From contig CAXXFL010000002.1 in the NCBI GenBank assembly GCA_963674965.2, positions 64,001 through 128,000 of the forward strand: a stretch of 64,000 bases of DNA, read 5' to 3'. The notes under the pieces are model-generated. The model worked only from the letters and a program-made list of their open reading frames with translations, did not search any database and had not been told where the DNA came from. Numbering within the stretch: the stretch's first letter is position 1; every line of letters starts with the position of its first letter. This stretch comes from a bacterium (lineage in GTDB: Bacteria > RBG-13-61-14 > DATKZS01). The position numbers were made by a program, and so were the translations under genes. Positions 16,061 to 37,780 of this stretch are shown in pieces.

Positions 16061-16062
16061 TA

Positions 16063-16524: not shown

Positions 16525-16620
16525 AGGCGGGTGCCATCTACGTTATGCTAAAGACCTTGTGGCTCTCGCGAGGCGAGACAGGAGTACCGTTATAAGCTTC
16601 TCATGGTTTTTTGAAAATAG
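16525..16620 (+). repeat. Spacer family A, partial and degenerate copy
   Basis: TGTGGCTCTCGCGAGGCGAGACAGG...TATAAGCTTCTCATGGTTTTTTGAAAA. Confidence 0.75.
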
Positions 16621-16665
16621 GCAAAATGAGCAATTACTCAAAGAAAAGAAAGAAGAGCATGGGTT

Positions 16666-17232
16666 ATGATATATCATAATACAGAATTGATTAAAGAGCA
16701 TTACGAAACCAACTGGAATAATGCGGCAGCAATAAAAAAATGGAATAAAGGGCCAATTCATGAATTGCCTCAATTTTTTAGCGTCCTTGAGTTTAGGCCA
16801 ACCATAAAAAGGGATATGTGGACATATGCAACATGTGGAATGTCAACACTTCAAGATCGGGAAAAGATCGAATTACATATACACTCACCAGAAAGAAATG
16901 AAGGCCTCGTAGAGCTATTAACCGTAGTAGTACATTTTCACGCAACTGATAGTAGTCTTGGTCTATGGCATACCGTTAATTTTGGAAGAGGATGGTTGCC
17001 TGATTCCAATTGTGAATATGGCCTTATTTCATTGCCTTATCTTGACGGTCCAGGCTTTGAAATATTAAAGAATAACAATGATGCCGTTTCTTTTTATTGG
17101 TTAATTCCAATTACAAAAGATGAAGTGGACTATAAAATAAAAAATGGAATAGAATGTCTTGAAGATGCTTTAGAGAAAGCAAACGTTAAATATCTTGATA
17201 AATACAGGGCCAGTGTTATCGGCTGTGAATAG
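16666..17232 (+). CDS. Suppressor-of-fused (SUFU) family immunity-type protein
   Basis: WTYATCGMS...IELHI...FYWLIPITKDE...GIECLED motifs. Confidence 0.85.
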   Translation: MIYHNTELIKEHYETNWNNAAAIKKWNKGPIHELPQFFSVLEFRPTIKRDMWTYATCGMSTLQDREKIELHIHSPERNEGLVELLTVVVHFHATDSSLGLWHTVNFGRGWLPDSNCEYGLISLPYLDGPGFEILKNNNDAVSFYWLIPITKDEVDYKIKNGIECLEDALEKANVKYLDKYRASVIGCE

Positions 17233-17259
17233 GCAACCCGAAGACGGGCATTGTACACT

Positions 17260-17318
17260 TTAGTTGTCAATATAGATGTAACTCCGCTCTTTGAAAACTT
17301 GTCATTATTACTTCCGTC
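17260..17318 (+). repeat. Spacer family B with boxA-like motif (17286-17297)
   Basis: GTTGTCAATATAGATGTAACTCCGCTCTTTGAAAACTTG. Homology to the main gene (14309) starts 33 bp after the motif start. Confidence 0.8.
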
Positions 17319-19139
17319 GATTCCGACTTTGACGGCTTCACGGACGGGTGGGAGGTGGAGTATAGCGATAGCCTTGGGTTCGATCCGGTGGTGGTGGAGT
17401 GCGATACGGCGGTGGCGGATTTCGACGGGGACGGGATGGGGGCGATTATCGAGGCGAGGCTGGGGACGGACCCGAGGTTGGCCGACTCGGATGGGGACGG
17501 GATCGACGATTATTGGGAGGTCGTGGCCGGGCTGGACCCGCTGGTGGACGACGCGGCCGATGACCCCGACGGCGACGGGAGGACCAACCTCGAGGAATAC
17601 CTGAACTCGGGGTATTTCTATACCAACCCATTCAATCCGGACACCGACGGCGACGGGCTGTGCGACGGCGTGACCTCCGTCATGGACGGAGCGACCCAGC
17701 TTTGCGGGCCTGGGGAGGGAGACTCGGCGACGCCCGAGCTGGACGCGGCGCGGCTACGGCTCCTGGCCGAGAGCGCCATCGGCGAGCTGACCCTCGGGGA
17801 CGGCGACACCTGGGCGGACGAGCTCGAGGAGGGCGACACTCTTAAGCTGTCCGTGGCGGGGGCGCTGGACGCGGGGACGTACACGGTGCGCTTCGATAAT
17901 GGGTCGGGCGCGGTTTACGCCATCGAGGCGTACGTGTCCGAGGGCGCGACATATATATTTGTGGACACGGGAGACCTCGGGGACGACGCCGGCTCCGGCT
18001 CATACGACATTGACGTGGTTGACGACTCGGGCTCGTGCCTCCTCGACTCGGGCGCCGCCTCGGTCAATATCTCCCAGCGGCTCTACCTCCACTACGGCCT
18101 CCACTCCCCGGTGGTCGCCACCAACTCCGACGGCGAGACCGTCTGGCGCCGCGCCTATCTCCCCTTCGGCGCCGACTTCGCCGGCTCGCCCTCCCACCCC
18201 CTCACCATCGCCAACTCCTCCATCACCCACGGCTTCGTCGGCCGCCGCTCCGACAACGACGTCGGCCTCTACCAACTCGGCGCCCGCTGGTACGACCCCG
18301 ACCTGGGGCGGTTCGTGAGCGTCGACCCGGTGCCGGGGTTCATCAATCAGTACGCTTACGCGAACAATAATCCATTTAAATATCAGGACGCGAGTGGGAG
18401 GCAATATGGCTCTTCAGGATATACAAGTTGGGCGGAGTGTAGTGGGACTTATGGCAATCCGGACAGCGATTATTGCACTGGAAAAGCAAATGAAAATTAT
18501 GATCCAGAAAAATTAAAGACTATTTTATACTGCACTTCAGGGGCTGCGCATGGGGAGTTGGCCTTCATGTATGATTCAGCAGATGCAGCTGCAAATTGGT
18601 GGAATCCAATTTACCAATATGGTACGTATAAGGGAATATACGAAGGGGGTGACTGGTTAATAAATGCTGATAAAGACGCAGCCTATGAAGCATGGATATC
18701 CAAGCCAAACAATGAGATATGTTACGATATTGGATATGGCACGGCAGCTTTAGGTGCTTTAGCCGCGCCATTGGCCAAAGGTAAGGTCGTTCCTAATGGT
18801 AATAAGCCAATAACTAAACCGAACGCAACTAAAGGCTGGAAAGTAGGAGACCCTATTAATAATTTGACTAGTAAAGGGAAAGTCCCTACATGGGATACAG
18901 TCAGGAAAAGATTTTGGAAAAATGAAGCAAGCAATAATCCAGGAAATTATAACGCTTCAAACCTTGCAAGAATGCGTGAAGGTTTAGCGCCTCAAAGAAT
19001 CAATCCCGGAACGGGCTCGCTTGAAAGTATGGAGTTGCATCATAAGCCTCCACAAAGAAAAGGCGGTTTATTTGATTTTGAACCATTATGGCCTAATGAA
19101 CATTCTGGGATCGATCCATATAGACATACCGGAAACTAA
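17319..19139 (+). CDS. Orphan cassette 1: repeat/Rhs-core copy plus HNH/EndoVII-fold (LHH-like) nuclease tip; no convincing start codon
   Basis: Near-identical to 14309-15385, then unique tip NLARMREGLAPQ...SMELHH...NEH. Confidence 0.85.
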   Translation, partial: DSDFDGFTDGWEVEYSDSLGFDPVVVECDTAVADFDGDGMGAIIEARLGTDPRLADSDGDGIDDYWEVVAGLDPLVDDAADDPDGDGRTNLEEYLNSGYFYTNPFNPDTDGDGLCDGVTSVMDGATQLCGPGEGDSATPELDAARLRLLAESAIGELTLGDGDTWADELEEGDTLKLSVAGALDAGTYTVRFDNGSGAVYAIEAYVSEGATYIFVDTGDLGDDAGSGSYDIDVVDDSGSCLLDSGAASVNISQRLYLHYGLHSPVVATNSDGETVWRRAYLPFGADFAGSPSHPLTIANSSITHGFVGRRSDNDVGLYQLGARWYDPDLGRFVSVDPVPGFINQYAYANNNPFKYQDASGRQYGSSGYTSWAECSGTYGNPDSDYCTGKANENYDPEKLKTILYCTSGAAHGELAFMYDSADAAANWWNPIYQYGTYKGIYEGGDWLINADKDAAYEAWISKPNNEICYDIGYGTAALGALAAPLAKGKVVPNGNKPITKPNATKGWKVGDPINNLTSKGKVPTWDTVRKRFWKNEASNNPGNYNASNLARMREGLAPQRINPGTGSLESMELHHKPPQRKGGLFDFEPLWPNEHSGIDPYRHTGN

Positions 19140-19207
19140 TTTGCCAAGCTCGTAAAATGGTCTACAGTTAAGGGAATGAAAATACTATTTACAAGAATAA
19201 TTGGAGT

Positions 19208-19705
19208 ATGAAGGTGCCAGATTTTCAAAAATATTTTATGGAGTCAGGTGGCAAACCAATCGTGTATAATGGCAAAGAAATTCGGATGATGGATGAAATA
19301 CCTGTTCTTAACAGAGATGCCTTTGCTATTACTATTGAAAAATGTAATAGCGAGTGGAAACAAGGCATTTCCTTAGTAGTAAATGGCATTTTTCAAATAA
19401 ATAAGCAGAGGATTAAAAGGGGCATCCTTTTATGGCAAGACACTGCCCCAAGAACTTCTCAGTTTAAGCTGTCCTTAAATAAACCAGGTAAATTAATCAT
19501 AAAGAATGTTTGGGACACTGGTAATGGCGTCATCGAGTCATGGCATCATGGCGCAGGGATTATCGTTGAGGAGATAAAAAACGGAAAACGTTATCACTGC
19601 AATGATGGACATCCCGATGACAATTTCGACGATATAGTATTTATTATCACTAAAATCACTGGTAATACCAGCGAGCAGGTCGGCGCGTTTGATTTTTTGG
19701 GGTGA
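19208..19705 (+). CDS. Putative immunity protein for cassette 1
   Basis: AT-rich ORF after the toxin, GGAG RBS. Family not recognised. Confidence 0.7.
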   Translation: MKVPDFQKYFMESGGKPIVYNGKEIRMMDEIPVLNRDAFAITIEKCNSEWKQGISLVVNGIFQINKQRIKRGILLWQDTAPRTSQFKLSLNKPGKLIIKNVWDTGNGVIESWHHGAGIIVEEIKNGKRYHCNDGHPDDNFDDIVFIITKITGNTSEQVGAFDFLG

Positions 19706-19711
19706 CCCGGG

Positions 19712-19772
19712 CTTAGGTTACAGCGTTACACGTAATTTCGCTCTTTGAAAACTTGTCATTATTACTTCCGCC
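19712..19772 (+). repeat. Spacer family B with boxA-like motif (19740-19751)
   Basis: GCTCTTTGAAAACTTGTCATTATTACTTCCG. Confidence 0.8.
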
Positions 19773-21428
19773 GATTCCGACTTTGACGGCTTCACGGACG
19801 GGTGGGAGGTCGTGGCCGGGCTGGACCCGCTGGTGGACGACGCGGCCGATGACCCCGACGGGGACGGGAGGACCAATCTCGAGGAATACCTGAACTCGGG
19901 CTACTTCTACACCAATCCCCTGAATCCCGATACCGACGGCGACGGGCTGTGCGACGGCGTGACCTCCGCCATGAGCGGCGAGACCGTGCTCTGCGGGCCG
20001 GGGGAGGGCGACTCGGCGACGCCCGAGCTGGACGCGGCGCGGCTTCGGCTCCTGGCCGAGAGCGCCATCGGCGAGCTGACCATCGGGGACGGCGACACCT
20101 GGTCCGATGAGCTCGAGGAGGGCGACACCCTCAAGCTGGCCGTGGCGGGGGCGCTGGACGCGGGGACGTACACGGTGCGGTTCGATAATGGGTCGGGCTC
20201 GGTTTACGCCATCGAGGTGGCCGTGTCCGAGGGCGCGACTTATATATTTGTGGACACGGGAGACCTCGGGGACGACGCCTCGGGAAATTTCGACATTGAC
20301 GTGGTGGACGACTCGGGCGCGAGCCTCCTCGACTCGGGCGCCGCCTCGGTCAATATCTCCCAGCGGCTCTACCTCCACTACGGGCTCCACTCCCCGGTGG
20401 TCGCCACCAACTCCGACGGCGAGACCGTCTGGCGCCGCGCCTACCTCCCCTTCGGCTCCGACTTCGCCGGCTCGCCCTCCCACCCCCTCACCATCGCCAA
20501 CTCCTCCATCACCCACGGCTTCGTCGGCCGCCGCTCCGACAATGACGTCGGCCTCTACCAACTCGGCGCCCGCTGGTACGACCCGGACCTGGGGAGGTTC
20601 GTCAGCGTCGATCCAGTTGCCGGGGGCATCAACCAGTACGCCTACGCGAACAATAATCCATTCCGATATTATGACGGAGACGGCCGGGAGTCGGAGTTCG
20701 TGAGCGGAATATACGGCGCTCTTTGGACGTACGCGGACGCGGTAAACTCGAATGAGACCACCGCTTGTATCAGCGCCGGAGCTCATGGAGTGCTAAGGAC
20801 GTTTTACTCGACGGGTGAAGGCGTCTATACCATGGCCCGGCATCCAGTCGATACCCTGTATGGCACGGGTGAGACTATTGGTTATGGGGCTTATTTATAT
20901 CTTGATGAGCCCGAGGTGTTGTACTACGGGGCAGTAAACCAGTATAATGCCTTCCTGGCAAGCGATCCTGACGAGCAAGCGTTAATCGGCTCGGAGTTAG
21001 CGGCCAACATTGCGCTCAGCGCGACCGGCGGCCCGAAGAGCATTGGCAAATCAGGGAAAGCATTAAGTGGCGCGGCTAGTAAAACAAGCAAGGCGGCGAA
21101 GGCGGCAAGAGCCGCAAACAAGGCCAGGGGGACAAAGGCAAGAAAAATTCTACGTAAAAACTTAGGTGACCCGCCCTCACATTTAAAAAAGCCACATGCC
21201 CACCATGACTTGCCGGTGGAATTTGAAGATAGATTTAATAAATTAGGCATTAATGATATAAACGAGGCGCAATATGGCCGATGGGTAGAAGGAGATAATA
21301 ACCATCTAAAATGGAGCAGAGACTTTAACAAAGAATGGAGAAAATTCTTCGATAGTAACCCAACAGCTTCTGATAAAGAAGTATTAAATTTCATGCATAA
21401 TTTAAGAAATAATCCAAATTTTCAGTAG
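19773..21428 (+). CDS. Orphan cassette 2: Rhs-core copy plus DUF2380/AHH-like nuclease tip
   Basis: Tip HAHHDLPVEFEDRF...INEAQYGRW...HLKWSRDFNKEWRKFF. 165-bp in-frame deletion between two TGGGAGGT copies in the shared part. Confidence 0.8.
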   Translation, partial: DSDFDGFTDGWEVVAGLDPLVDDAADDPDGDGRTNLEEYLNSGYFYTNPLNPDTDGDGLCDGVTSAMSGETVLCGPGEGDSATPELDAARLRLLAESAIGELTIGDGDTWSDELEEGDTLKLAVAGALDAGTYTVRFDNGSGSVYAIEVAVSEGATYIFVDTGDLGDDASGNFDIDVVDDSGASLLDSGAASVNISQRLYLHYGLHSPVVATNSDGETVWRRAYLPFGSDFAGSPSHPLTIANSSITHGFVGRRSDNDVGLYQLGARWYDPDLGRFVSVDPVAGGINQYAYANNNPFRYYDGDGRESEFVSGIYGALWTYADAVNSNETTACISAGAHGVLRTFYSTGEGVYTMARHPVDTLYGTGETIGYGAYLYLDEPEVLYYGAVNQYNAFLASDPDEQALIGSELAANIALSATGGPKSIGKSGKALSGAASKTSKAAKAARAANKARGTKARKILRKNLGDPPSHLKKPHAHHDLPVEFEDRFNKLGINDINEAQYGRWVEGDNNHLKWSRDFNKEWRKFFDSNPTASDKEVLNFMHNLRNNPNFQ

Positions 21429-21436
21429 GCACCGTT

Positions 21437-22102
21437 ATGATTAAATTTTACTCCATTTCAGATAACTCCTTTGATACAAGAGGCTTCCCCTGGATATCGG
21501 AAATAACGAAAGGAATTACCATGTTGCCCCCCTGCGAAAAATGCGGAGGCCGGAGATTCTATCCTTCAGGTGATATCTCCGTTATTTTTGAGCCGGATAA
21601 GGGTACCAAGTGGGCTGATGTTTTAGGTTGCGGAAGCCAAATGTTATTAATTATCTCAGAAAAAGTCGTCGCAGCATGGTCGAAAGAAAACATTGGAGAA
21701 ATCCCCCTTCACAGGGTTAAACTCCAAAAGCCTTATCCAAAAAAGCTTGAGGGGACAAAGCCTCCAAAGTACTATTGGGTGGATGGAGAAAAACTCTGTG
21801 GCGCCGAGCTTGACTTACTCGCCAGTGGATTTCTTGATGCTCGCTATTGTGAAAGCTGTGGACGATTGTTGTACGATATTACTAAAACATATACATTGCA
21901 GCACTCAAAAATATGCCCTTATATATTCAAGCCTGACAGTTGGGACGGTAAAAACCTTTTCACTACCAATTTATCGTATCTTAAGTTCTTTTGTACGGAT
22001 GCTCTTATAGATTGCGCGAAAAAGTACAAGCTAACCAACTTTCGTTTCACACCCGTTGAGGAAGGAAGCGCGATAGGACATAAAGGGATTAAATATTTGT
22101 AG
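21437..22102 (+). CDS. Immunity protein, double-CXXCG-like
   Basis: CEKCGG and CESCG motifs, SWDGKNLF, KLTNFRF. Adjacent to the DUF2380-like tip. Confidence 0.75.
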   Translation: MIKFYSISDNSFDTRGFPWISEITKGITMLPPCEKCGGRRFYPSGDISVIFEPDKGTKWADVLGCGSQMLLIISEKVVAAWSKENIGEIPLHRVKLQKPYPKKLEGTKPPKYYWVDGEKLCGAELDLLASGFLDARYCESCGRLLYDITKTYTLQHSKICPYIFKPDSWDGKNLFTTNLSYLKFFCTDALIDCAKKYKLTNFRFTPVEEGSAIGHKGIKYL

Positions 22103-22127
22103 GCCTTAGATTAAAAGCTCGCGATCA

Positions 22128-22163
22128 TTTGATCTTTGAAAACTTGCCTCTGTTCTTTCCATC
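22128..22163 (+). repeat. Spacer family B (short) with boxA-like motif (22131-22142)
   Basis: GATCTTTGAAAACTTGCCTCTGTTCTTTCC. Confidence 0.8.
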
Positions 22164-23936
22164 GATTCCGACTTTGACGGCTTCACGGACGGGTGGGAGG
22201 TGGAGTACGCGGATAGCCTTGGGTTCGATCCGGTGGTGGTGGAGTGCGATACGGCGGTGGCGGATTATGACGGCGACGGGATGGCGGCCATTATCGAGGC
22301 GAGGCTGGGGACGGACCCGAGGTTGGCCGACTCGGATGGGGACGGGATCGACGATTATTGGGAGGTCATCGCCGGGCTGGACCCGCTGGTGGACGACGCG
22401 GCCGAGGACCCCGACGGGGACGGGAGGACCAACCTCGAGGAGTACCAGAACTCGGGCTACTTCTATACCAACCCCCTGAATCCCGATACCGACGGCGACG
22501 GCCTTTGCGACGGCGTGACCTCCGTCATGAGCGGCGAGACCGTGCTCTGCGGGCCGGGGGAGGGCGACTCGGCGACGCCCGAGCTGGACGCGGCGCGGCT
22601 ACGGCTCCTGGCCGAGAGCGCCATCGGCGAGCTGACCCTCGGCGACGGCGACACCTGGGCGGACGAGCTCGAGGAGGGCGACACCCTCAAGCTGTCCGTG
22701 GCGGGGGCGCTGGACGCGGGGACGTACACGGTTCGGTTCGATAATGGGTCGGGCTCGGTTTACGCCATCGAGGTGGCCGTGTCCGAGGGCGCGATTTATA
22801 TCCTGGTGGACACGGGAGACCTCGGGGACGAGGCCTCGGGAAATTTCGACATTGACGTGGTGGACGACTCGGGCTCGAGCCTCCTCGACTCGGGCGCCGC
22901 CTCGGTCAATATCTCCCGGCGCCTCTACCTCCACTACGGTCTCCACTCCCCGGTGGTAGCCACCAACTCCGACGGCGAGACCGTCTGGCGCCGCGCCTAC
23001 CTCCCCTTCGGCTCCGACTTCGCCGGCTCGCCCTCCCACCCCCTCACCATAACCAACTCCTCCATCACCCACGGCTTCGTCGGTCGCCGACAAGACAACG
23101 ACGTCGGCCTCTACCAGTTGGGAGCAAGGTGGTACGACCCGGACCTGGGGAGGTTCGTGAGCGTCGAACCAATTCCAGGGTTCCTTAACCAATACGCCTA
23201 TGCTGGTAACAATCCATTTGTTTACCAGGACGATAGTGGTATGTATATAGAGACCGCTATCGATATTGGTTTCATTTCATATGACATTTATGAGCTACAG
23301 AAAGACCCTTCAAGCGGGTGGAACTGGGCGGCCCTCGGCGCTGACGCGCTTTGCGCTGCCCTCCCGGTCGTTACGGGAGGCGGCGCCGCGGTTCACGCTA
23401 TCGGCGGTCTCAACAAGGCGGCTGACGCCGTCCAGGCCGCCGATAAACTTATTGACGCGGGAAAAGCGGTCGATAAGGGCATTGACGCCGCCAGGGGCGT
23501 CGATAAAGGAATTGACGCGGCCAAGGTTGGTTCTGAAGTCGCCAGTCATGCTGATGAGGCCGTTGACGCCGCCAAAGGCTATGAAAGATTGGCTGGAAGT
23601 AACGTCAACCATATAAACGGAGCAATCGCGGAGCAGCATGGATGGCAACGAGCTTTGCAGGATGGACACATTGGTATAAAGCCACCCGGGAAAGTGACGT
23701 CGAAAGGACCGGATTTTATTACATATAGTCGTAAGGATGATTTGATAATGGTTTGGGATGCAAAGTTTAGAAGTGGTGGTAACTTCCCATCATCCATATC
23801 AGCGAGTAAAATGAATAAATGGATGCCTTATGTGGAGGATGCCATAAAAAATATGCCGGCCGGTGAGGCTAAAACCTGGGCCGAAAGAGCGTTAAAAAAT
23901 GGAAATATCAGAGGTAAATTATTTCCGTGGCCTTAA
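22164..23936 (+). CDS. Orphan cassette 3: Rhs-core copy plus restriction-endonuclease-fold (PD-(D/E)xK) tip
   Basis: NGAIAE...KGPDFITY...VWDAK. Confidence 0.8.
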
Positions 23937-23962
23937 TAATAAGGATGATTCTGGTGATTGAA

Positions 23963-24457
23963 ATGGAATGGATAGAGTTTATTCGAATTAGGGAATGGTC
24001 TCCATTAGCAAGTCTTAACATTGACATGGAAATAATTATTGAAGGCAGATATAAAATTAGTGATAATCAATATCTCCTATCATCTCCTTGCAACAAGGAT
24101 TTTATAGATGCCGCTAATGGACCGTTTGTTACTGCGCTTGTTTGGGCATGTAGTGAAGGGGCTTTCAGGAGAGTGTACTTGGCAGAAATTGAAAAGGACG
24201 ATGGAAATATCGTAAGTCCTCCAGACGAAATATTGCCGGAAGCTGGTAAATATACATATAGAAAAATTCATGAGGGCTTAGTTAAATTAAATTGTAAAGG
24301 AATTTTAGAAACTGCCAGCTATCGTATCGCCACGGATGGAGCCTTTTTAAATAGGAGTATTGAATCAGAAATTGCTTCATACCATTTTCGTGGAAGAGAA
24401 TATGATGATGAAGAAGAACCATTCGTAATCACGTGGAACTTGATATTATACAGGTGA
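23963..24457 (+). CDS. Putative immunity protein for cassette 3
   Basis: AT-rich, adjacent to the toxin. Paralog of 28334-28828. Confidence 0.75.
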   Translation: MEWIEFIRIREWSPLASLNIDMEIIIEGRYKISDNQYLLSSPCNKDFIDAANGPFVTALVWACSEGAFRRVYLAEIEKDDGNIVSPPDEILPEAGKYTYRKIHEGLVKLNCKGILETASYRIATDGAFLNRSIESEIASYHFRGREYDDEEEPFVITWNLILYR

Positions 24458-24464
24458 ATTCTGC

Positions 24465-24680
24465 GGCGGGTGGGCTATACGGTTTTGCATGAAAACCGTG
24501 TGGCTCTCGCGAAGCGAGACGGGTATACTGGTATCAGCTTCTCACGGTTCTTTGAAAAATCAATTTAAGCTTTTTGCTGCATGTAGTTGGAGTCGCAAGC
24601 TTCGACATGACGTGAGGCGCTAAGCCAGTTCGCTCCGCTCACCCACTCATTCGTAAAGAATGAGATGGGCCACCCAAGAG
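24465..24680 (+). repeat. Spacer family A, full copy: multi-hairpin element with boxA-like motif (24547-24558)
   Basis: Hairpins GCTATACGGTTTT/AAAACCGTGTGGC, TCTCGC/GCGAGA, CCCACTCATTC/GAATGAGATGGG. Motif GTTCTTTGAAAA. Confidence 0.85.
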
Positions 24681-28311: not shown

Positions 28312-28333
28312 AATTAAGAATAGGGAGATCATT

Positions 28334-28828: not shown

Positions 28829-28834
28829 GTTCTT

Positions 28835-29050
28835 CGGCGAGTGGGCCATACGGTTTTGCAAGAAACCATGTGGCTCTCGCGACGCGAGACGGGTATACTG
28901 GTATCAGCTTCTCACGGTTCTTTGAAAAATCAATTTAAGCTTTTTGCTGCATGTAGTTGGAGTCGCAAGCTTCGACATGACGTGAGGCGCTAAGCCAGTT
29001 CGCTCCGCTCACCCACTCATTCGTAAAGAATGAGATGGGCCACCCAAGAG
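28835..29050 (+). repeat. Spacer family A, full copy with boxA-like motif (28917-28928)
   Basis: 3' portion appears identical to 24520-24680. Confidence 0.85.
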
Positions 29051-30313: not shown

Positions 30314-30315
30314 AA

Positions 30316-30771
30316 ATGACTGATAATATTTATCTCCAATGTTATGATGAATACAATAAATATGCATGCTATAATGTGATTAATTTTAATATATCATATT
30401 ATAATAAAGAACAAATAGCTGTTAACAAAAACATGGTCCAAAGCGGGTGGTATTCAAGTTATAGTGGCCATTTAATTTTATTATATATAATTAATGGCAA
30501 GTTGATATTAAAAGTAAATGAATTTCATTTCGAATTATGTGAAGATATCATTGTCGATGTCTCAGGCCCTTGGGACAATCGCACTCTAAAAATATATTTA
30601 AAAAAACGAGAAGTACTTACTATCATGTATACTACAATTAATAGGCCATACGATAATGATATAACGCCATTTATAGAGGATGATGATTTTGATTTATGTT
30701 TATTTGCACGCAACCTGTTAATGGACAAAGAGCGAAGAAATCGAGTAATAAACATCAAACGTTATATATAA
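30316..30771 (+). CDS. Putative immunity protein for cassette 6
   Basis: Very AT-rich ORF abutting the toxin, with DITPFIEDDDFD motif. Confidence 0.7.
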   Translation: MTDNIYLQCYDEYNKYACYNVINFNISYYNKEQIAVNKNMVQSGWYSSYSGHLILLYIINGKLILKVNEFHFELCEDIIVDVSGPWDNRTLKIYLKKREVLTIMYTTINRPYDNDITPFIEDDDFDLCLFARNLLMDKERRNRVINIKRYI

Positions 30772-30784
30772 ATAGAGACATGGT

Positions 30785-30993
30785 GGATGTCCATTACGGT
30801 TTTGCATGAAAACCGTGTGGCTCTCGCGGAGCGAGACAGGTGTACCGGTATAAGCTTCTCACGGTTCTTTGAAAATTCAATTGAGCTTTTCGCATACAGG
30901 TGGAGCCGAAAGCTTCGACATGACTTGAGGCGCTAAGCCCGTTCGCTCCGCTCACCCACTCATTCGTGCCGAATGAGGTGGGCCACCCAAGAT
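30785..30993 (+). repeat. Spacer family A, full copy with boxA-like motif (30864-30875)
   Basis: Same hairpin series with loop substitutions. Confidence 0.85.
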
Positions 30994-32229
30994 GACGAGA
31001 TCGAGGAGGGCGACACCCTCAAGCTGGCCGTGGCGGGGGCGCTGGACGCGGGGACGTACACGGTGCGCTTCGATAATGGGTCGGGCTCGGTTTACGCCAT
31101 CGAGGTGGCCGTGTCCGAGGGCGCGACTTATATATTTGTGGACACGGGAGACCTCGGGGACGACGCCGGCTCCGGCTCATACGACATTGACGTGGTGGAC
31201 GACTCGGGCTCGAGCCTCCTCGACTCGGGCGCCGCCTCGGTCAATATCTCCCAGCGGCTCTACCTCCATTACGGGCTCCACTCCCCGGTGGTCGCCACCA
31301 ACTCCGACGGCGAGACCGTCTGGCGCCGCGCCTATCTCCCCTTCGGCGCCGACTTCTCCGGCTCGCCCTCCCACCCCCTCACCATCGCCAACTCCTCCAT
31401 CACCCACGGCTTCGTAGGCCGCCGACAAGATAATGACGTCGGCCTCTACCAACTCGGCGCCCGCTGGTACGACCCGGACCTCGGCAGGTTCGTGAGCACA
31501 GACCCGGTGTCTGGCCTTCTGAACCAGTACTCTTACGCCAATAACAATCCGTTCGTTTATCATGATGCTTCCGGTTTGTTTTTCGAACAATTTACCACCG
31601 GAGTCGTCAAACAAGCCCTCAGCCCATGGATAAAAATCAATGAGGTTGTAAAGGTGCCGGGACTTGATACCGCAATGTATTACATAGAGGGCACGGAGTC
31701 GGAAATCTTGGCATGGGAAGATACTCATGACTTTTTCACCGGTACCGCCCATGAGGATTGGTGGGCCATGGCCGATACTTATGAACAAGGGTCGGCGGGC
31801 TATTGGGCCTATGGCGTCGGCGGCATGTTCGCATGTACGAACGATATACAGTTTTTTGGCAGTATAGCTGAACTAGGGGCTATGGGCCTTGGGGCCAAAG
31901 CTGTCGCCGGTGAGGAAATGGCAGCCGCAAATGCGGGGAAATCATCTAAAGCTTCTCAATTATCAAAAAATAAAGCAAAAGGAGACGCTTTTCGTGACGA
32001 GATAGCTGAATTATTTGAGAAAAATGGGTATGAAGTCGAAAAAGAGGTGACGAAAAAAACCCCATTTGGTAATCGTCGATTAGACATGGAGGTGAAAAAA
32101 GACGGTAAGGTACTTGGTGGAATTGAAACAAAAACGGGAGATTCACCTTATAAGCCTTCACAAAGAGCAAAAGATAAATGGCTTCAGATATTTGAAAGAT
32201 ATTTTGTTGATCTTGTACGTGATAATTAG
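30973..32229 (+). CDS. Orphan cassette 7 (short type): Rhs-core copy plus REase-fold tip
   Basis: NKAKGDAF...TPFGNRRLD...GIETK...Q.AKD. Confidence 0.8.
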   Translation: MRWATQDDEIEEGDTLKLAVAGALDAGTYTVRFDNGSGSVYAIEVAVSEGATYIFVDTGDLGDDAGSGSYDIDVVDDSGSSLLDSGAASVNISQRLYLHYGLHSPVVATNSDGETVWRRAYLPFGADFSGSPSHPLTIANSSITHGFVGRRQDNDVGLYQLGARWYDPDLGRFVSTDPVSGLLNQYSYANNNPFVYHDASGLFFEQFTTGVVKQALSPWIKINEVVKVPGLDTAMYYIEGTESEILAWEDTHDFFTGTAHEDWWAMADTYEQGSAGYWAYGVGGMFACTNDIQFFGSIAELGAMGLGAKAVAGEEMAAANAGKSSKASQLSKNKAKGDAFRDEIAELFEKNGYEVEKEVTKKTPFGNRRLDMEVKKDGKVLGGIETKTGDSPYKPSQRAKDKWLQIFERYFVDLVRDN

Positions 32230-32425
32230 ATTGAATTATCGAAGTGTCACAAGTAGTGTGCCTTGAGGTAAGGATTAACTGACTTGTAAACGGTAACCCG
32301 ATTGACATTGCAAAGCTTTCGATATGAAAGCAACAATATTTTATAATCAATTTTATGTTGTGGTATATATAGAAAGTAAGGGGCGTTAAGATCGTGTGTA
32401 TAAGACATTAAGGAGATTTGGCAAA

Positions 32426-33040
32426 ATGGAAGCTTTGTCTTTATTTAACAGATTAGTTAGGGAACATATCAGGCCTTTATTGTCATTACACGGATATAAA
32501 CGTTATGGCAATACTTACCTGCTTTATAAAGATGAAATATGGAGGCTTATAAACTTTCAGAAAAGCACAAAAAGTACTAGACATGAAGTACTTTTTACCA
32601 TTAATTTGGGAATATCCTCACAGTTACTTTATAATTTTTATAATGAAACAATTAAGCGTCCGAAGATTGAAGACTGTCACTTTCGTGAACGCATTGGATT
32701 TTTATTGCCTCAGCATAAGGATAAATGGTGGACAATCAATGCCAATTCAAACCTTGTCGATCTCAATGAAGAAATATTTTCGAGCACTGAGCATTATATC
32801 GTACCGGAGTTAGAAAAATATTCTAGTAACAGCAATTTGAGAGATCTCTGGATTTCGGGCAGATCACCAGGGTTAACTGATTTTAAAAGGCTAATGAATT
32901 TAATGATCTTATTAAAGGAAATTGGTCCGACCGAAATGCTCGAACAGGTTATTGAAGAATTACGATTGGACGCACAAGGCACGCCAGCTGGTATAACCGC
33001 TGAAATATATATTGATAAAATATTAAAAAGTAATAGGTAA
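32426..33040 (+). CDS. DUF4304-like putative immunity protein
   Basis: P.L..HGYKR.G...LINFQKS...FTINLGI...RERIG.L...D.WW pattern, AAGGAG RBS. Confidence 0.75.
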   Translation: MEALSLFNRLVREHIRPLLSLHGYKRYGNTYLLYKDEIWRLINFQKSTKSTRHEVLFTINLGISSQLLYNFYNETIKRPKIEDCHFRERIGFLLPQHKDKWWTINANSNLVDLNEEIFSSTEHYIVPELEKYSSNSNLRDLWISGRSPGLTDFKRLMNLMILLKEIGPTEMLEQVIEELRLDAQGTPAGITAEIYIDKILKSNR

Positions 33041-33144
33041 CCAACAAAAGGGTCTACATTTTATCACTCTTGTCCAAAATAGGTTATTGTTTTGGACAGG
33101 GTTTCACATCCAGAGGCGTCAATTGATTCGATCTGCCGCCTTGG

Positions 33145-33328
33145 GCGTGTGGCTCTCGCAACGCGAGACAGGTATACCGGTATAAGCTTCTCACGGTTCT
33201 TTGAAAAAACAATTTGAGCTTTTTACTGCATGTAGTTGGAGTCGTAAGCTTCGACATGCCTCGAGGCGCTAAGCCTGTTCGCTCCGCTCACCCACTCATT
33301 CGTTCCGAAAGAGTGGGCCACCCAAGAT
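33145..33328 (+). repeat. Spacer family A, 5'-truncated copy with boxA-like motif (33196-33207)
   Basis: CGTGTGGCTCTCGCAACGCGAGACAGG...GTTCTTTGAAAA...CGCTCCGCTCACCCACTC. Confidence 0.85.
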
Positions 33329-34597
33329 GATGAGCTTGAGGAGGGAGACACGGTGCTCCGGCTGGCCGTGACCTCAAGCTTGGACGCGGGCACTTATACG
33401 GTACGGTTCGATAACGGTTCGGGATCGGTTCACGAGATCGAAGTAGCCGTGTCCGAGGGCGCGACCTATGTTATCGTGGACATAAGCGACCTTTGGGACG
33501 ATGAAGCAAGAAGCTTTTGGGTGGACATTGCCGACGACTCGGGCGCGAGCCTCCTCGACTCGGGCACGACCACCGTCAACCTCACCCACCGCCTCTACCT
33601 CCATTACGGTCTCCACTCCCCGGTGGTCGCCACCAACCAGGACGGCGAGACCGTCTGGCGCCGCGCCTACCTCCCCTTCGGCGCCGACTTCGCCGGCTCG
33701 CCCTCCCACCCCCTCACCATCGCCAACTCCTCCATCACCCACGGCTTCGTCGGCCGCCGACAAGATAATGACGTCGGCCTTTATAAGCTGGGCGCTCGCT
33801 GGTATGACCCGGATTTAGGAAGGTTCGTTAGTACGGACCCGATACCAGGACTTATTAATCAATACGAGTACGCTCATAATAATCCAATAACCTTTCAGGA
33901 CTCGAATGGGATGCAATATGGCGGCCCTGGATATACTCAGTGGGCTGAGAATAGCAGTCTATCTGGCGGGACCGTTTCCGTCAAGGAAGTTGTAAAAGAA
34001 TTAAAGACGTTTGCAGACTTGTCAACGGCGTTTGTCCCGGGTGTCAACGATGTGCGCGATGTATTCGAATGCACCAGCGGCTACGATGCAATAAATGTTA
34101 CGGAACTTCAATGGTACTGGCGGGCGACGAGTTGCGTTGGAATAGCTGCCGCGTCAGGCGCGGGTGTAAGAAAAGCTGGACTGTTAATTTCCGGTGTCAC
34201 ACGGTATGGTGACGACGTTGCAAGTCATGCTGATGAAGTTGCGGGGATAGGCAAATATTGGAAGAATAAGGGTCACCATATCCATGCGGCAGCGGGCTTT
34301 ACGGATCACGTTAAATATAGTAAAAGTAAAGGATTCTCCATAAGCAAAGAGTTTATGGAAGAAAATGGCTTGTCGCATTTAGACATGACAAATGAACAAC
34401 GTAGGCAATTCAGGGAACTAGCTGAAAGTGGGCGTCCCAATACATTGGAAGAACATTCACGTATTGCATACGAATCCTTAATCGCGGGAGGAGCCACACC
34501 AGAAATGGCTGAAGAATTAGTTGGACAATCTCTTCGAAATCTGGCCGAACAAGGCGTTGAAGTACCGACAAATATACCTTGGTATAACAATAAGTAA
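33329..34597 (+). CDS. Orphan cassette 8 (short type, diverged N-part): Rhs-core copy plus His-rich putative nuclease tip
   Basis: Tip KGHHIHA...HLDMT...PTNIPW. Shared part is more divergent than in the other cassettes. Confidence 0.75.
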   Translation, partial: DELEEGDTVLRLAVTSSLDAGTYTVRFDNGSGSVHEIEVAVSEGATYVIVDISDLWDDEARSFWVDIADDSGASLLDSGTTTVNLTHRLYLHYGLHSPVVATNQDGETVWRRAYLPFGADFAGSPSHPLTIANSSITHGFVGRRQDNDVGLYKLGARWYDPDLGRFVSTDPIPGLINQYEYAHNNPITFQDSNGMQYGGPGYTQWAENSSLSGGTVSVKEVVKELKTFADLSTAFVPGVNDVRDVFECTSGYDAINVTELQWYWRATSCVGIAAASGAGVRKAGLLISGVTRYGDDVASHADEVAGIGKYWKNKGHHIHAAAGFTDHVKYSKSKGFSISKEFMEENGLSHLDMTNEQRRQFRELAESGRPNTLEEHSRIAYESLIAGGATPEMAEELVGQSLRNLAEQGVEVPTNIPWYNNK

Positions 34598-34618
34598 ATA
34601 TCACGAGGTAGTGTAATT

Positions 34619-34987
34619 ATGAGTAATCATGTACTCGATCGGTTTGGACAATTTCTAATGGAGAACGTTAGGGATCGACAAATATCAATTTGCACACGAC
34701 TAATTGAAGGAACTATGAAAGGCGTAACTCAAGAAAAGATAAAGCCGATTCTTTCCGACTTGACTGAAAAAGAACTTTCTGTATTTATAAAATTACTGCC
34801 AATAATAGTGGACATAGGATTGCACGAATTTCTTTTTGCATTAACTGAGCAGGATGATATCTCTATATTAGTCGAAACAAACGATGGAGGCAAGGTTGAT
34901 ATAAACGAAGAAAGTGACGGTCTTCATGGAGAACTATTTACTACAGATGGATGGATATATCGCTTCAGTAAATATCCTGAATTCTAA
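34619..34987 (+). CDS. Putative immunity protein for cassette 8
   Basis: LDRFGQFLMENVRD...SDGLHGELF...GWIYRFSK, GAGG RBS. Confidence 0.75.
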   Translation: MSNHVLDRFGQFLMENVRDRQISICTRLIEGTMKGVTQEKIKPILSDLTEKELSVFIKLLPIIVDIGLHEFLFALTEQDDISILVETNDGGKVDINEESDGLHGELFTTDGWIYRFSKYPEF

Positions 34988-35067
34988 ATAACAGGTAACA
35001 CATAGAAGGGTCCTGAAATATAAGTAAACAGGTAACACACAAAAGGGTCTTAAATATAAGTAACCCA

Positions 35068-35197
35068 TATAACTCCGCTATATGGTCGAGAATAGCGAGC
35101 AGGTCATAGAGAATCGTTTCCCGGGGATGACCTATGCTTTGGTTGTCGATATAGATTTAACTCCGCTCTTTGAAAACTTGCCTCTGTTCTTTCCGCC
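35068..35197 (+). repeat. Spacer family B, long copy with boxA-like motif (35165-35176)
   Basis: Aligns with 26405-26535. Confidence 0.8.
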
Positions 35198-36982
35198 GAT
35201 TCTGACTTTGACGGCTTCACGGACGGGTGGGAGGTGGAGTACGCGGATAGCCTTGGGTTCGATCCGGTGGTGGTGGAGTGCGATACGGCGGTGGCGGATT
35301 ATGACGGGGACGGGATGGCGGCCATTATCGAGGCGAGGCTGGGGACCAACCCGCTGTTGGCCGACTCGGATGGGGACGGGATCGACGATTATTGGGAGGT
35401 CATCGCCGGGCTGGACCCGCTGGTGGACGACGCGGCCGATGACCCCGACGGGGACGGGAGGACCAACCTCGAGGAGTACCAAAACTCGGGCTACTTCTAC
35501 ACCAATCCCCTGAGTCCCGATACCGACGGCGACGGGCTGTGCGACGGCGTGACCTCGGTCATGGACGGAGCGACCCAGCTCTGCGGGCCTGGGGAGGGAG
35601 ACTCGGCGACGCCCGAGCTGGACGCGGCGCGGCTACGGCTCCTGGCCGAGAGCGCCATCGGCGAGCTGACCCTCGGCGACGGCGACACCTGGTCCGACGA
35701 GCTCGAGGAGGGCGACACTCTCAAGCTGGCCGTGGCGGGGGCGCTGGACGCGGGGACGTACACGGTGCGGTTCGATAATGGGTCGGGCTCGGTCTTCACC
35801 ATCGAGGCGTACGTGTCCGAGGGCGCGACTTATATCCTGGTGGACGCGGGCGACCTCGGGGACGACGCCGGCTCCGGCTCTTACGACATTGACGTGGTGG
35901 ACGACTCGGGCTCGAGCCTCCTCGACTCGGGCGCCGCCTCGGTCAATATCTCCCAGCGGCTCTACCTCCACTACGGTCTCCACTCCCCGGTGGTCGCCAC
36001 CAACTCCGACGGCGAGACCGTCTGGCGCCGCGCCTACCTCCCCTTCGGAGGCGACTTCGCCGGCTCGCCCTCCCACCCCCTCACCATCGCCAACTCCTCC
36101 ATCACCCACGGCTTCGTCGGTCGCCGCTCCGACAATGACGTCGGCCTCTATCAACTCGGCGCCCGCTGGTACGACCCGGACCTGGGGCGGTTCGTGAGCG
36201 TCGATCCGGTTTTCCAGGATCTCAATCAATACGCATACGCGAATAATAATCCATTCGTCTATCAGGACGGCGATGGTCGCGATCCTATGGCAATGGCGGC
36301 TTTGATAATTTACGCCGCCGGCGGTATTGGAGTTGGAGTTCCTCTCGCTATAGTAGGAGGTCTGGATGGAGTTGGAGCGATTCCTTCTGAAGCAGCGGCT
36401 GATGACGCTTACAATGGAATACGAGATGCTTGGGACGTCGTCAATATCCCAGGGGACGTTTGCGCCGGCTTAAGTTTTACCGCCACCGGCTATAAGATCG
36501 CAAAAAACCCTCGAGGGTTTTATAATGGAGTCAAGGGATCAATAAACGGAGTAAAAGGATTATTAAAAGGGTCGGCCGACGACGCGGCCGAGGGCGCGGG
36601 CAAGGCCGTATTGGAGGCCGCGGAGGAAGTTGGCGATGACGCGGTAGATATAAACTTAAAATATAAACACGGTTGGAGTAATTCGCAACGTGCTGCCGCT
36701 GATGGTAAAGTGAAAGCTCTAACAGAAGCGGAAACAAAAGTAGTGAAAAACCCTAGTCGTAGCGGTACTGCGCAAGCAAAGTATCGCAAGGATTCAGGAC
36801 TAGATGCATCAATGGATGCTGATCATACTATTGATCTCCAATTGAATGGAGTCGATGATATGTCAAATATATCTGGACTCGATAGAAGCGTTAATAGAAG
36901 CTTGGGGGCTCAAATTCAACAGAATATTAAGCAATATCCAGAAGGCACAAGAGTGAATAAAGTCATAATAAAGGATGAATAA
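35198..36982 (+). CDS. Orphan cassette 9: Rhs-core copy plus HNH-fold nuclease tip
   Basis: [15 protein letters not shown]...[10 protein letters not shown]. Confidence 0.85.
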
Positions 36983-37606
36983 ATGTTATATAACTTTATT
37001 AACACATTCAAAGCCACAGGAGATGTTGGCAATGTGAAAGCTAGCATCTGCTTTGAAAAAGAACATGGATTGTTCTTTACGACTTGTATTAATGAATTAG
37101 GAGGAAAGTCTTTCAATCACGGCCTTTATCGCGTTTACAGAAGTGATCAAATAAATACTGCAACTTATTTAGTTGAGGAAGCTTTTCCTGAATTGAAGAA
37201 TCGTATTGTTTGTTTTGCTTTTGATTGGCTTGGCCGACATTTTGCGGTTGACTCATCACGGCAAAAAAATGGCCAGCATCTTATTCTATTTATTGAACCG
37301 GGCACGGGAGAGGTGTTGCAGATACCATCAAATATTATAGATTTTCATAATATTGAATTGGTTAATTATACAAATGATGCTCTTGCACTTTCATTTTATA
37401 ACGAATGGAAACGTAGGAATAATGAAGTATTACAGCATGACCAATGCGTTGGTTATAAAGTGCCTCTTTTCCTTGGTGGGGATGATACGATTGATAATCT
37501 TGAAGTGATTGACCTTGAAGTCTATATAGAGATATGTGGAAAGATTCGTAATAAAATTATTAGTTTACCTGATGGCACGCCTATACGTAAGATTACCATT
37601 AGCTGA
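36983..37606 (+). CDS. Immunity protein, Tdi1-like (DUF1851 C-terminus)
   Basis: GLYRVY...FAFDWLGRHF...CVGYKVPLFLGGDD..DNLE..DLEVY. Confidence 0.85.
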   Translation: MLYNFINTFKATGDVGNVKASICFEKEHGLFFTTCINELGGKSFNHGLYRVYRSDQINTATYLVEEAFPELKNRIVCFAFDWLGRHFAVDSSRQKNGQHLILFIEPGTGEVLQIPSNIIDFHNIELVNYTNDALALSFYNEWKRRNNEVLQHDQCVGYKVPLFLGGDDTIDNLEVIDLEVYIEICGKIRNKIISLPDGTPIRKITIS

Positions 37607-37609
37607 AAG

Positions 37610-37780
37610 TGGCGGGATGGCCATAAGGTTTTGCAAGAAAGCGTGTGGCTCTCGCGGAGCGAGACAGGTATACCGGTATAAGATGCTCACGGTTCTTTGA
37701 AAAAATAATTTGAGCTTTTCACATAAAGGTTAAGCCAAAAACTTCGACATGACTTGAGGCGCTAAGCCTGTTCGCTCCGC
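37610..37780 (+). repeat. Spacer family A, 3'-truncated copy with boxA-like motif (37692-37703)
   Basis: Same hairpin series, lacking the terminal hairpin. Confidence 0.8.

Follow-up and report, generated by a model that had tools for sequence, protein, structure and literature searches.

Candidate boxA antitermination elements ahead of start-less orphan cassettes in a putative Rhs-type polymorphic toxin array

Organization of the locus and of its orphan cassettes

Orphan toxin/immunity arrays are widespread, and their presumed role is to keep immunity genes and spare toxin tips in reserve. The window, i.e. the whole stretch of 64,000 nt analysed here, most probably holds a Rhs-type polymorphic toxin locus with orphan cassettes, as indicated by all three of the features tested for this assignment. 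Its elements are given below; "word" stands for the 12-mer GNTCTTTGAAAA, and A and B for the two spacer families in which it occurs.

2710-5388, + strand: upstream gene with RHS repeat, 892 aa (Pfam RHS_repeat, E 2.4e-10)
6140-16060, + strand: full-length polymorphic toxin gene, 3306 aa as listed, with TSP3 repeats and an HNH nuclease tip
14303-15377, + strand: constant handle common to the full-length gene and the orphans (self-BLAST)
16063-16512, + strand: cognate immunity gene, DUF4265 (Pfam, E 7.4e-31)
16606-16617, + strand: decayed boxA word GTTTTTTGAAAA in a family A spacer (C4 to T)
17286-17297, + strand: word GCTCTTTGAAAA, family B, orphan 1 (handle from 17313, stop 19139; colicin/pyocin DNase-like tip; immunity gene 19208-19705)
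18021-18300, + strand: representative C-rich, G-poor stretch in an orphan handle, candidate Rho loading region
19740-19751, + strand: word GCTCTTTGAAAA, family B deletion variant, orphan 2 (handle from 19803, stop 21428; immunity gene 21437-22102)
22131-22142, + strand: word GATCTTTGAAAA, family B, orphan 3 (22158-23936; immunity gene about 23927-24457)
24478-24680, + strand: representative family A spacer, about 200 nt
24547-24558, + strand: word GTTCTTTGAAAA, family A, orphan 4 (handle from 24681, stop 25964; immunity gene 25954-26202)
26503-26514, + strand: word GATCTTTGAAAA, family B, orphan 5 (26536-28311; immunity gene end 28828)
28917-28928, + strand: word GTTCTTTGAAAA, family A, orphan 6 (29051-30313; immunity gene end 30771)
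30864-30875, + strand: word GTTCTTTGAAAA, family A, orphan 7 (30994-32229; DUF4304 immunity gene end 33040)
33196-33207, + strand: word GTTCTTTGAAAA, family A, orphan 8 (33329-34597; weak PT-TG match; immunity gene 34619-34987)
35165-35176, + strand: word GCTCTTTGAAAA, family B, orphan 9 (35198-36982; Tdi1-like immunity gene 36983-37606)
37692-37703, + strand: word GTTCTTTGAAAA, family A, 104-nt handle remnant (37779-37882), array end

Translation of the full-length toxin gene displayed a 15-residue C-terminal motif, which we take to be the Rhs-type core end, and no boxA word occurs within this gene (6140-16060). Nine orphans and one remnant matched its handle, from 14303 (family B) or 14807 (family A) to 15377, at 77-95% identity; most copies fell between 89 and 95% and the orphan at 33329 between 77 and 82% (self-BLAST), and tips and immunity genes differed. 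Behind the decayed word at 16606 there is no toxin cassette, but only an immunity gene of SUFU type (16666-17232). Outside this genome, searches returned no close relative of the toxin family.

Orphan cassettes appear to lack usable start signals and immunity genes to possess them. In family B cassettes, no canonical start precedes a GTG at codon +20, 60 nt inside the frame, and this GTG has no spaced Shine-Dalgarno (SD) site; family A cassettes display an ATG about 100 nt downstream of the word, non-conserved and located inside a hairpin. An SD site and an ATG were present for the immunity genes and for a full-length gene. Candidate Rho loading was evaluated with a heuristic of our own, based on 78-nt sub-windows with a C/G ratio of at least 1.5. 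Each handle contains one C-rich, G-poor stretch downstream of its boxA word, and this threshold was passed by 190 of 735 sub-windows in the handle, as compared with 2 of 635 in the toxin tip and 4 of 473 in the immunity part. Promoter-like sites were somewhat commoner in the AT-rich toxin and immunity parts (36, versus 23 +/- 4.6 in shuffles), so that the immunity genes may have promoters of their own.

Distribution of the word and its match to the host rrn boxA

A sequence-only reading of this DNA had reported an rrn-type boxA motif ahead of every orphan cassette. A word search for GNTCTTTGAAAA returned ten matches in the window for 0.03 expected, all on the + strand, which is the sense strand; in 100 dinucleotide shuffles of the window, the mean number of matches was 0.03 and the count never reached ten. 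The matches lie exactly at the positions first reported, five of them in family B (17286, 19740, 22131, 26503 and 35165) and five in family A (24547, 28917, 30864, 33196 and 37692), the latter family also including the one-mismatch copy that had been listed at 16606. Along the array of the window, the word recurs once per 2.0-2.5 kb.

The possibility of a common background word was evaluated over the whole genome (6.5 Mb), and this objection fails, since 35 exact copies were counted versus four for a reversed control word. Spacer families A and B hold 21 of these 35. The initial claim extends to the genome as a whole: an exact sense-strand copy occurs, at a fixed distance, upstream of every one of the 19 orphan or remnant handles in this toxin family, and none of the three full-length genes of the family is preceded by one. 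All ten copies of the window and all 19 pre-orphan copies are found 5' of the cassette, on the predicted transcript strand. The word was mutated in two of three cassette-less spacers (C4 to T at 16606, G8 to T at C1:1346431) against none of 19 with a cassette; it may decay where nothing needs protecting. Copies were also detected in frame in an IS3-type transposase (QKQFFENG, five copies) and beside an IS-associated repeat, which shows that the word can also emerge, or be carried along, for unrelated reasons.

In the host rrn leader, GCTCTTTGAAAACT is located about 104 nt 5' of the 16S gene, after a TTGACA-17-TAAACT promoter and a GNRA hairpin. A differing host boxA was the main refutation envisaged by the sequence-only reading; the word is in fact the same as that in the organism's own rrn leader. 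The same operon contains three one-off variants, GTTCTTTGAAAG, GCTCTTTGAAAT and GTTCTTTGACAA, in the P1 leader and in the 16S-23S spacer. Family B has 14 nt in common with the rrn leader (14/14, including the following CT) and family A 12 nt with the word of the P1 leader. The rrn-like leaders of relatives G001, G002 and G007 carry GTTCTTTGAAAACTA. The rrn operon is immediately preceded, on its own strand, by orphan fragments (contig C1). Genes were found for Rho, NusB (153 aa), NusG (single match), NusA and an inositol-monophosphatase/SuhB-like protein, S10 (NusE) being a universal ribosomal protein. The gamma-proteobacterial consensus GYTCTTTAANA, as given in the available part of PMC5725501, is one position away from GYTCTTTGANA found here; an A at position 2 (GATC...) in four of 13 family B copies falls outside its Y.

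The word also includes TTGAAA, one position from TTGACA, which could be the -35 box of a promoter for each cassette or immunity gene. Since the host rrn operon has sigma-70-type promoters, the sigma-70 consensus is applicable to this organism. However, scanning from 16000 to 35900 gave no + strand site with the TTGAAA of the word as first hexamer (0 of 9 copies), the sole site touching a copy being on the minus strand at 17297, and no TAnnnT was found 16-18 nt downstream of the word in either family. Such a promoter, already raised as an objection in the first description of the motif, is therefore very improbable.

Conservation of the word in three contexts

The two spacer families are distinct, as had been proposed: the longest exact word common to A and B spacers is TCTTTGAAAA, i.e. 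the motif itself. Its placement in family B was also correctly described, the word starting 33 nt before GATTCC, the first cassette codons, and its TGA being in the reading frame of the cassette; the BLAST match to the full-length gene begins 6 nt before GATTCC. Among 13 family B copies, 13 of the 14 positions of the word and following CT were invariant, and pairwise identity over these positions was 0.949, as compared with 0.882 for the coding handle and with 0.753 and 0.585 for the downstream and upstream flanks. The word forms an island of conservation in this family and was apparently selected for itself, not only carried along by the repeat. Four different upstream contexts abut it.

In family A, the word sits 130-134 nt ahead of the handle. 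Two hairpins, ACGGTTTT..AAAACCGT and TCTCGC-NNN-GCGAGA (variable loop), are located 5' of it, and a 3' hairpin, CCCACTCATTC..GAATGAGATGGG, buries the non-conserved ATG. A search of Rfam gave no match for this spacer. Family A spacers are conserved along their whole length, so that conservation does not set the word apart from the sequence around it. Owing to the paralogy of copies within each family, the independent contexts number about three, not 19.

The third context was provided by a related genus (G007 and G010), where GYTCTTTGANA heads five of five orphans; three of those in G007 are truncated about 14 nt upstream of the word. In both G007 frames that are open upstream of the word, C106 (2481 aa) and C90 (cut off by the contig end), it is read in frame as KEFFEN. 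Over 27 aligned codons from eight G007/G010 copies, only four third positions were invariant, all inside the word, and the third position varying within the word is its N. The word persisted through E-to-stop and F-to-L changes. Conservation at synonymous sites and retention through amino-acid changes show that the word is under nucleotide-level constraint.

These data bear on two other explanations. The word could be functionless, with an origin by chance once or twice, or by transfer from the rrn-adjacent array fragment on C1, followed by copying with the spacers. Within-family copies are indeed paralogous, some C2 and C6 copies having identical flanks, and the thorough conservation of family A spacers, the orphan fragments next to the rrn operon and the in-frame copies of the IS3-type transposase are all compatible with such a history. 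It is nevertheless improbable in view of the conservation of the family B word, far better than that of both flanks and better than that of the coding handle, of its recurrence in three contexts, two of them unrelated spacers and the other a coding one with synonymous-site conservation in another genus, and of its mutation in cassette-less spacers only.

Alternatively, selection at the nucleic-acid level may have acted for something other than Nus, the word being a 5' boundary for cassette recombination or capture, or an RNA processing site at which a long transcript is cut into its modules. The abutment of at least three different upstream contexts makes the family B word the 5' edge of a repeated unit; this and the truncated G007 orphans agree with a boundary, and the nucleotide-level constraint deduced from synonymous sites is of unspecified kind. 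Yet exact identity with the rrn leader, CT included, would call for a second coincidence, and the family A word is not at the boundary, given its distance to the handle. No inverted repeats or paired sites were found, all cassettes have one orientation, and the only nearby recombinase is a large serine recombinase on an adjacent island with restriction-modification genes. We consider this explanation unlikely.

Putative antitermination and comparison with known systems

Antitermination is the reading that we hold to be probable, if only just: the words would be Nus-dependent anti-Rho elements for untranslated cassettes. From sequence data we infer co-transcription of the array, Nus binding, an anti-Rho effect and reloading at each cassette. 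The 12-mer would be a true boxA, the RNA site at which NusB-S10 (NusE) starts assembly of the Nus antitermination complex on the polymerase, and the array would be transcribed as one long RNA from upstream. Ribosomes would drop off at each immunity-gene stop codon, and the next cassette, deprived of a usable start, would expose its C-rich, G-poor stretch to Rho loading. In the short gap between the immunity stop and this stretch, boxA would render the polymerase Rho-resistant, so that it could carry on into the next immunity gene, which is equipped with a ribosome-binding site and an ATG of its own. With its own boxA copy, each cassette would still be transcribable wherever recombination puts it.

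This arrangement resembles rrn antitermination in the identity and sense-strand location of the word, the uncoupling of transcription from translation, the presence of the factor genes and, for family A, a hairpin 5' of the word as in the rrn leader. It differs in that the transcribed unit is a start-less protein-gene fragment followed by a translated immunity gene instead of a structural RNA, in the recurrence of the word every 2.0-2.5 kb instead of once per leader and spacer, and in the lack of an accompanying hairpin in family B.

CRISPR arrays, none of which was found in this genome, offer another parallel. According to the available part of PMC7862264, citing Stringer et al. (2020, eLife), a single leader boxA upstream of the array serves it; there too, an array that is long, repetitive and untranslated depends on transcription of its distal units, and an rrn boxA appears co-opted against polarity. 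CRISPR arrays have one boxA upstream, whereas here each cassette unit bears its own, and the need for a copy in every cassette is not evident if one leader copy can serve a whole array.

Orphan cdiA-CT/cdiI and rhs-CT/rhsI modules have the same layout in the accessible text of Poole et al. (2011, PMC3150448): a full-length gene precedes handle-sharing 3' fragments devoid of initiation signals, each followed by an immunity gene with signals of its own. The orphan toxin is without initiation signals in that system, where the orphan immunity protein is produced and the orphan region can be co-transcribed with the main gene, the toxin fragment remaining untranslated. The handle in our case belongs to a TSP3-repeat/Rhs-core protein, and every orphan has a boxA word, whereas that part of the report mentions neither antitermination nor boxA.

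In the literature searched, no description was found of boxA elements heading untranslated toxin cassettes, and the passage of polymerase over kilobases of untranslated C-rich RNA in orphan arrays, without Rho arrest, was not addressed. A boxA ahead of each start-less cassette represents a concrete, mutable element for the study of Rho escape. Should the antitermination reading be correct, the non-ribosomal uses of Nus would extend beyond phage, suhB and CRISPR arrays.

It is possible, but rather doubtful, that boxA is a general, self-installing device of silent-cassette toxin arrays, with a translation-gated in-frame form in G007 and G010. In that genus, ribosomes would occupy the KEFFEN word of the full-length Rhs gene and so keep it inert; it would be exposed as a Nus loading site only once the cassette is displaced downstream and its translation lost; every orphan would thereby inherit a translation-gated antiterminator at its 5' end. 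The lineage of the window would have achieved the same outcome through non-coding spacers. If so, orphan immunity libraries would be kept expressed by Nus-dependent antitermination rather than by private promoters, and the same logic would be expected in other phyla, each with its own boxA dialect. The in-frame form would be a regulatory RNA signal concealed within a coding sequence and activated once translation is lost. As a statement on orphan arrays at large, the boxA claim of the sequence-only reading was too general, although it withstood the sequence-level tests for this toxin family: in five other Rhs-type loci of the same genome, none of 14 core-bearing frames had the word between -400 and +150.

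A genuine Nus-binding boxA could also act as a repressor, either by blocking residual translation of toxin fragments or by promoting Rho termination. Precedents exist in the consulted portions of two sources: boxA-dependent repression in E. coli, for suhB, and in C. koseri, for a ParE-like toxin gene, with boxA within about 50 nt of the start (Baniulyte et al. 2017, PMC5725501), and stimulation or inhibition of Rho-dependent termination by boxA depending on context (Rho review, PMC12360218). The suhB and ParE-like cases share with ours a boxA outside rrn, adjoining a toxin gene, with a consensus one position away, and all sequence evidence for boxA identity fits repression equally well. Translation is repressed there from a boxA close to a functional start, whereas no functional start or ribosome-binding site was found here within about 50 nt of boxA: the nearest candidates are 20 codons inside the cassette without spaced SD (family B) or about 100 nt away and hairpin-buried (family A). 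Promoted termination would moreover shut off the immunity genes further downstream, and it is these alone that have good expression signals. Repression is unlikely on these grounds, and the other Rhs-type loci point the same way. Four short orphans in those loci begin with GGAGGA-N14-ATG, i.e. with their own SD and ATG, and orphans so equipped are the ones without the word, the opposite of what a translational repressor predicts.

Toxin locus and positions of the proposed boxA word

The full-length toxin gene of the window lies between an RHS-repeat gene upstream and a DUF4265 immunity gene downstream, and its translation carries, directly ahead of the variable tip, a 15-residue motif which we take to be the Rhs core end.

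Full-length gene of the toxin locus
6140-16060: full-length toxin gene, 3306 aa as listed, with TSP3 repeats and an HNH tip

Self-BLAST showed that the constant handle of this gene (14303-15377) recurs in nine downstream orphans (start-less cassettes of handle and variable tip) and in one remnant, a handle fragment. The match starts at 14303 in orphans preceded by family B spacers and at 14807 in those preceded by family A spacers; the family B orphan at 19803 is a deletion variant. Every orphan carries a toxin tip of its own and is followed by a small gene; several of these genes match the immunity families SUFU, DUF4304 and Tdi1.

The 12-mer proposed as boxA, the Nus antitermination site, had been read ahead of every orphan, always on the sense strand. 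An exact pattern search with GNTCTTTGAAAA returned the same ten coordinates, all on the + strand and in agreement with the self-BLAST positions of the cassettes; the observation is thereby confirmed. Chance expectation from dinucleotide-preserving shuffles was 0.03 on average for the 64-kb window, at least ten matches being reached in 0 of 100 shuffles. The copy at 16606 departs by one mismatch (GTTTTTTGAAAA), and the pattern search found no copy in the full-length toxin gene of the window. As had also been read, the family B word begins 33 nt 5' of the first cassette codon with its TGA in frame, and the two spacer families are unrelated, sharing no stretch longer than the word. Family A carries the word 130-134 nt 5' of the handle, within a conserved spacer of ~200 nt.

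Several mobile or repeated elements surround the locus. Ahead of the toxin operon stands an IS110-family transposase (window 1518-2534), and direct repeats of 73-76% identity occur within the full-length toxin gene, in its 5' part (window 9976-11493). A large serine recombinase with Resolvase, Recombinase and zinc-ribbon domains directly follows the array (window 38791-40104), and a second stretch similar to it was found 14 kb further, at about 53238-53416. Since HsdM and RhuM genes lie between these two stretches, a mobile island was probably inserted beside the toxin array.

Host rrn boxA and genome-wide distribution

The sequence-only reading equates the proposed word with a boxA form common to many non-enterobacterial rRNA leaders and spacers. 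That the host's own rrn boxA might differ had been named as a possible refutation of the sequence-only reading; this objection fails because the host rrn leader holds the same word. Upstream of the one assembled 16S gene (contig C1:908699-910260, minus strand), the leader reads TTGACA-17-TAAACT, a GNRA hairpin and then TGCTCTTTGAAAACTA, ~104 nt ahead of 16S. Near-copies follow an upstream promoter (GTTCTTTGAAAG) and the 16S gene (GCTCTTTGAAAT), and another stands ~120 nt ahead of 23S (GTTCTTTGACAA). The rrn-like leaders of three other genomes of the phylum (G001, G002 and G007) read GTTCTTTGAAAACTA, which brings the leaders read, from this genome and its relatives, to four. Family B and the rrn leader have 14 consecutive bases in common. 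The form found here, GYTCTTTGANA, stands one position apart from the gamma-proteobacterial consensus GYTCTTTAANA published in PMC5725501, and the host rrn copies likewise have G there. A genome search for exact or one-mismatch words near nusB or the suhB-like gene gave none. Family B orphan fragments were also observed directly 5' of the rrn P1 promoter, on the same strand (C1:910800-912400, minus), with two boxA words (C1:911782 and C1:912291).

The genome-wide count called for by the sequence-only reading gave 35 exact words in 6.5 Mb, against 4 of the reversed control word.

Distribution of the exact word in the genome
rrn leader: 1 copy
Family B spacers: 13 copies
Family A spacers: 8 copies
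In frame in an IS3-type transposase (QKQFFENG): 5 copies
Beside an IS-associated repeat: 4 copies
Singles: 4 copies, three with G at position 2

One-mismatch words numbered 154 over 33 variants in the whole genome, about the background level, those of note being only rrn variants, extra spacer copies and IS-associated repeats. Three full-length paralogues of the window toxin exist in the genome (one in the window, two on C6), each with orphans, and fragments of the family also occur on C1. The 22 handle matches comprise 19 orphans or remnants and these 3 full-length genes; an exact sense-strand word stood upstream at the family-specific distance in 19/19 of the former and 0/3 of the latter.

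The IS-associated repeat is a third non-coding context (..GATCCAAGTCAGGCCCCGGCGGCGCGACCCGCCTT-word-TCGAATACCGAGGG..), found at C1:1078860, C3:165173, C5:227232 and C6:6695, with one-mismatch copies at C2:128040 (40 nt beyond the window end), C2:323622, C3:316515 and C7:894282. It had no Rfam family match and is preceded in several copies by an open frame of ~400 aa. In other copies the shared part stops at ..CCCGGCGG, pointing to the terminus of an insertion sequence or to a site at which it prefers to insert. The IS3-type transposase frame occurs in five identical copies with in-frame ..NWQKQFFENGAAAFE.. (C1:673709, C2:4513, C2:15178, C6:294525 and C6:477964), two of them inside other Rhs arrays.

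Translation signals and proposed transcription through the cassettes

In family B orphans the TGA within the word marks where the frame opens; the earliest canonical start, at codon +20, is a GTG which GGGAG abuts without spacing, and the first ATG comes at codon +47. Of the 7 family A copies, 4 have an ATG, which lacks a Shine-Dalgarno (SD) sequence and lies inside a predicted hairpin. One full-length paralogue begins with AAGGAG-N7-ATG, and in most immunity genes an SD-like sequence stands before the ATG. Orphan cdiA-CT fragments are generally described as lacking initiation signals by Poole et al. (2011, PMC3150448), who report that the orphan immunity protein was made and the orphan toxin not detected; by the same work, an orphan region can be transcribed together with the main gene. 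These signals also bear on a repressive role of the word, documented elsewhere (PMC5725501; review PMC12360218) for the boxA of suhB and for that of one toxin gene: repression of this kind requires a nearby start, and none is present here.

Each handle contains, 3' of the word, 200-280 nt rich in C and poor in G, a candidate Rho loading region; by our own heuristic for such composition, a C/G ratio of at least 1.5 over 78 nt, 190/735 windows passed in the handle, 2/635 in the tips and 4/473 in the immunity parts. The host encodes Rho, NusB, NusA, a SuhB-like gene and a single NusG-family gene, and a site scan of 16000-35900 detected no + strand terminator-like site within the spacers. The same scan addressed whether the word could be the -35 of a promoter: in none of the 9 copies scanned is the TTGAAA paired with a -10. 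Private promoters may drive the immunity genes, promoter-like sites being moderately over-represented in AT-rich parts (36 vs 23 +/- 4.6).

An internal contrast was available from five other Rhs-type loci of the genome, with 14 core-bearing frames.

Other Rhs-type loci with orphans
C2:10343-17369
C4:370050-380932
C1:685251-689598
C6:476326-480166
C6:847553-850552

Between -400 and +150 of the frame opening, the exact word was found in 0/14 of these frames; in a single frame a word with one mismatch occurs, at -307. Four short orphans in these loci follow a conserved spacer ending GGAGGA-N14-ATG and therefore appear independently translatable. Signal-bearing orphans are thus without boxA and start-less ones have it, the pattern predicted by antitermination; the fit concerns two toxin families only and is one of sequence. 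According to Stringer et al. (2020, cited in PMC7862264), boxA upstream of CRISPR arrays promotes the expression of distal spacers; a simple repeat scan of this genome gave no CRISPR array for comparison.

Conservation of the word and its recurrence in a second lineage

Over word plus CT, 13 of the 14 positions are invariant among the 13 family B copies (12 distinct), compared with 1/25 upstream and 8/19 downstream. The word has a pairwise identity of 0.949, against 0.585 on its upstream side and 0.753 on its downstream side; the coding handle reaches 0.882. Upstream, the word adjoins four different contexts. Such an island points to selection on the family B word itself. In family A the word does not stand out, because the whole spacer is conserved. 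Among family A spacers without a cassette, the word is mutated in 2/3, at 16606 (C4 to T, only an immunity gene behind) and at C1:1346431 (G8 to T); in front of a cassette, in either spacer family, it is mutated in 0/19 cases. Mutations at C4 are reported in PMC5725501 to inactivate the E. coli boxA. Isolated family A spacers, away from arrays, were seen at C5:413591, C1:1346431 and C1:1464597, next to small unknown ORFs and to housekeeping or regulator genes, namely PGI and DeoC, a sigma-70 factor and a LuxR-type regulator; these three are probably relics of lost cassettes.

Structure prediction gave several hairpins in the family A spacer, with compensatory change in 2/51 predicted pairs, and no significant fold in family B (z-scores -0.11 and 0.34); the word thus has no boxB-like hairpin as a constant partner. 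The spacers match no Rfam family, the sole match at E <= 1 being a chance miRNA match.

Searched against genome and metagenome contigs, the handle gave distant TSP3 or Rhs-core matches alone (3 and 4 loci), and comparison was therefore based on the paralogues in the genome and on the 12 other genomes of the phylum sample of 13. In G001 and G002, MAGs of the same family, the 16/18 word matches other than the rrn-like leaders resemble chance or coding sites scattered over the genome, and neither MAG includes an assembled array. G007, from another family of the same order, has an Rhs array (C106) with GTTCTTTGAAAA / GTTCTTTGATAA / GCTCTTTGACAA in four copies spaced 2.3-2.5 kb, 4 on the sense strand and 0 on the antisense. 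One is in frame (ELTKEFFEN) in a 2481-aa full-length gene and the other three head three orphans. The same placing recurs in a second G007 array (C90), in an orphan on C79 and in another genome (G010:C485). Of the orphans in this lineage, three are truncated ~14 nt upstream of the word, and in two of these the word is immediately preceded by an in-frame TAG. This second lineage is an independent third context of the word at orphan heads.

Across 27 codons of eight related sequences, aligned ungapped and with the register past codon 16 uncertain in two rows, third positions are invariant at four sites, all in the word (GAG TTC TTT GAN AAT); the varying one inside it corresponds to the consensus N. 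The word is kept despite amino-acid changes, from E to stop and from F to L by TTC to CTC, the consensus Y, which argues for constraint at the nucleotide level. Hitch-hiking of the word with its spacers is contradicted by these synonymous sites, by the family B island and by the decay pattern. A role as cassette boundary or RNA processing site may also be considered and is compatible with the conservation data; it leaves the identity with the rrn word unexplained. Antitermination passes every available sequence-level test, with support from the second lineage, and we infer that the word would bind Nus factors and protect from Rho at the cassettes.

Full-text literature searches retrieved no account of orphan toxin arrays with boxA or antitermination, although the boxA-gene supplements of Baniulyte et al. 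could hold cases. BoxA in an orphan array is a known system put to a new use rather than a new kind of system, its most unusual aspect being the in-frame version. In a G007:C90 Rhs frame running off the contig end, the motif region is duplicated in tandem (EFFKEFFDN; L057, about 205-240), and the first copy, GTTCTTTAAAGA, is near the enterobacterial boxA form.
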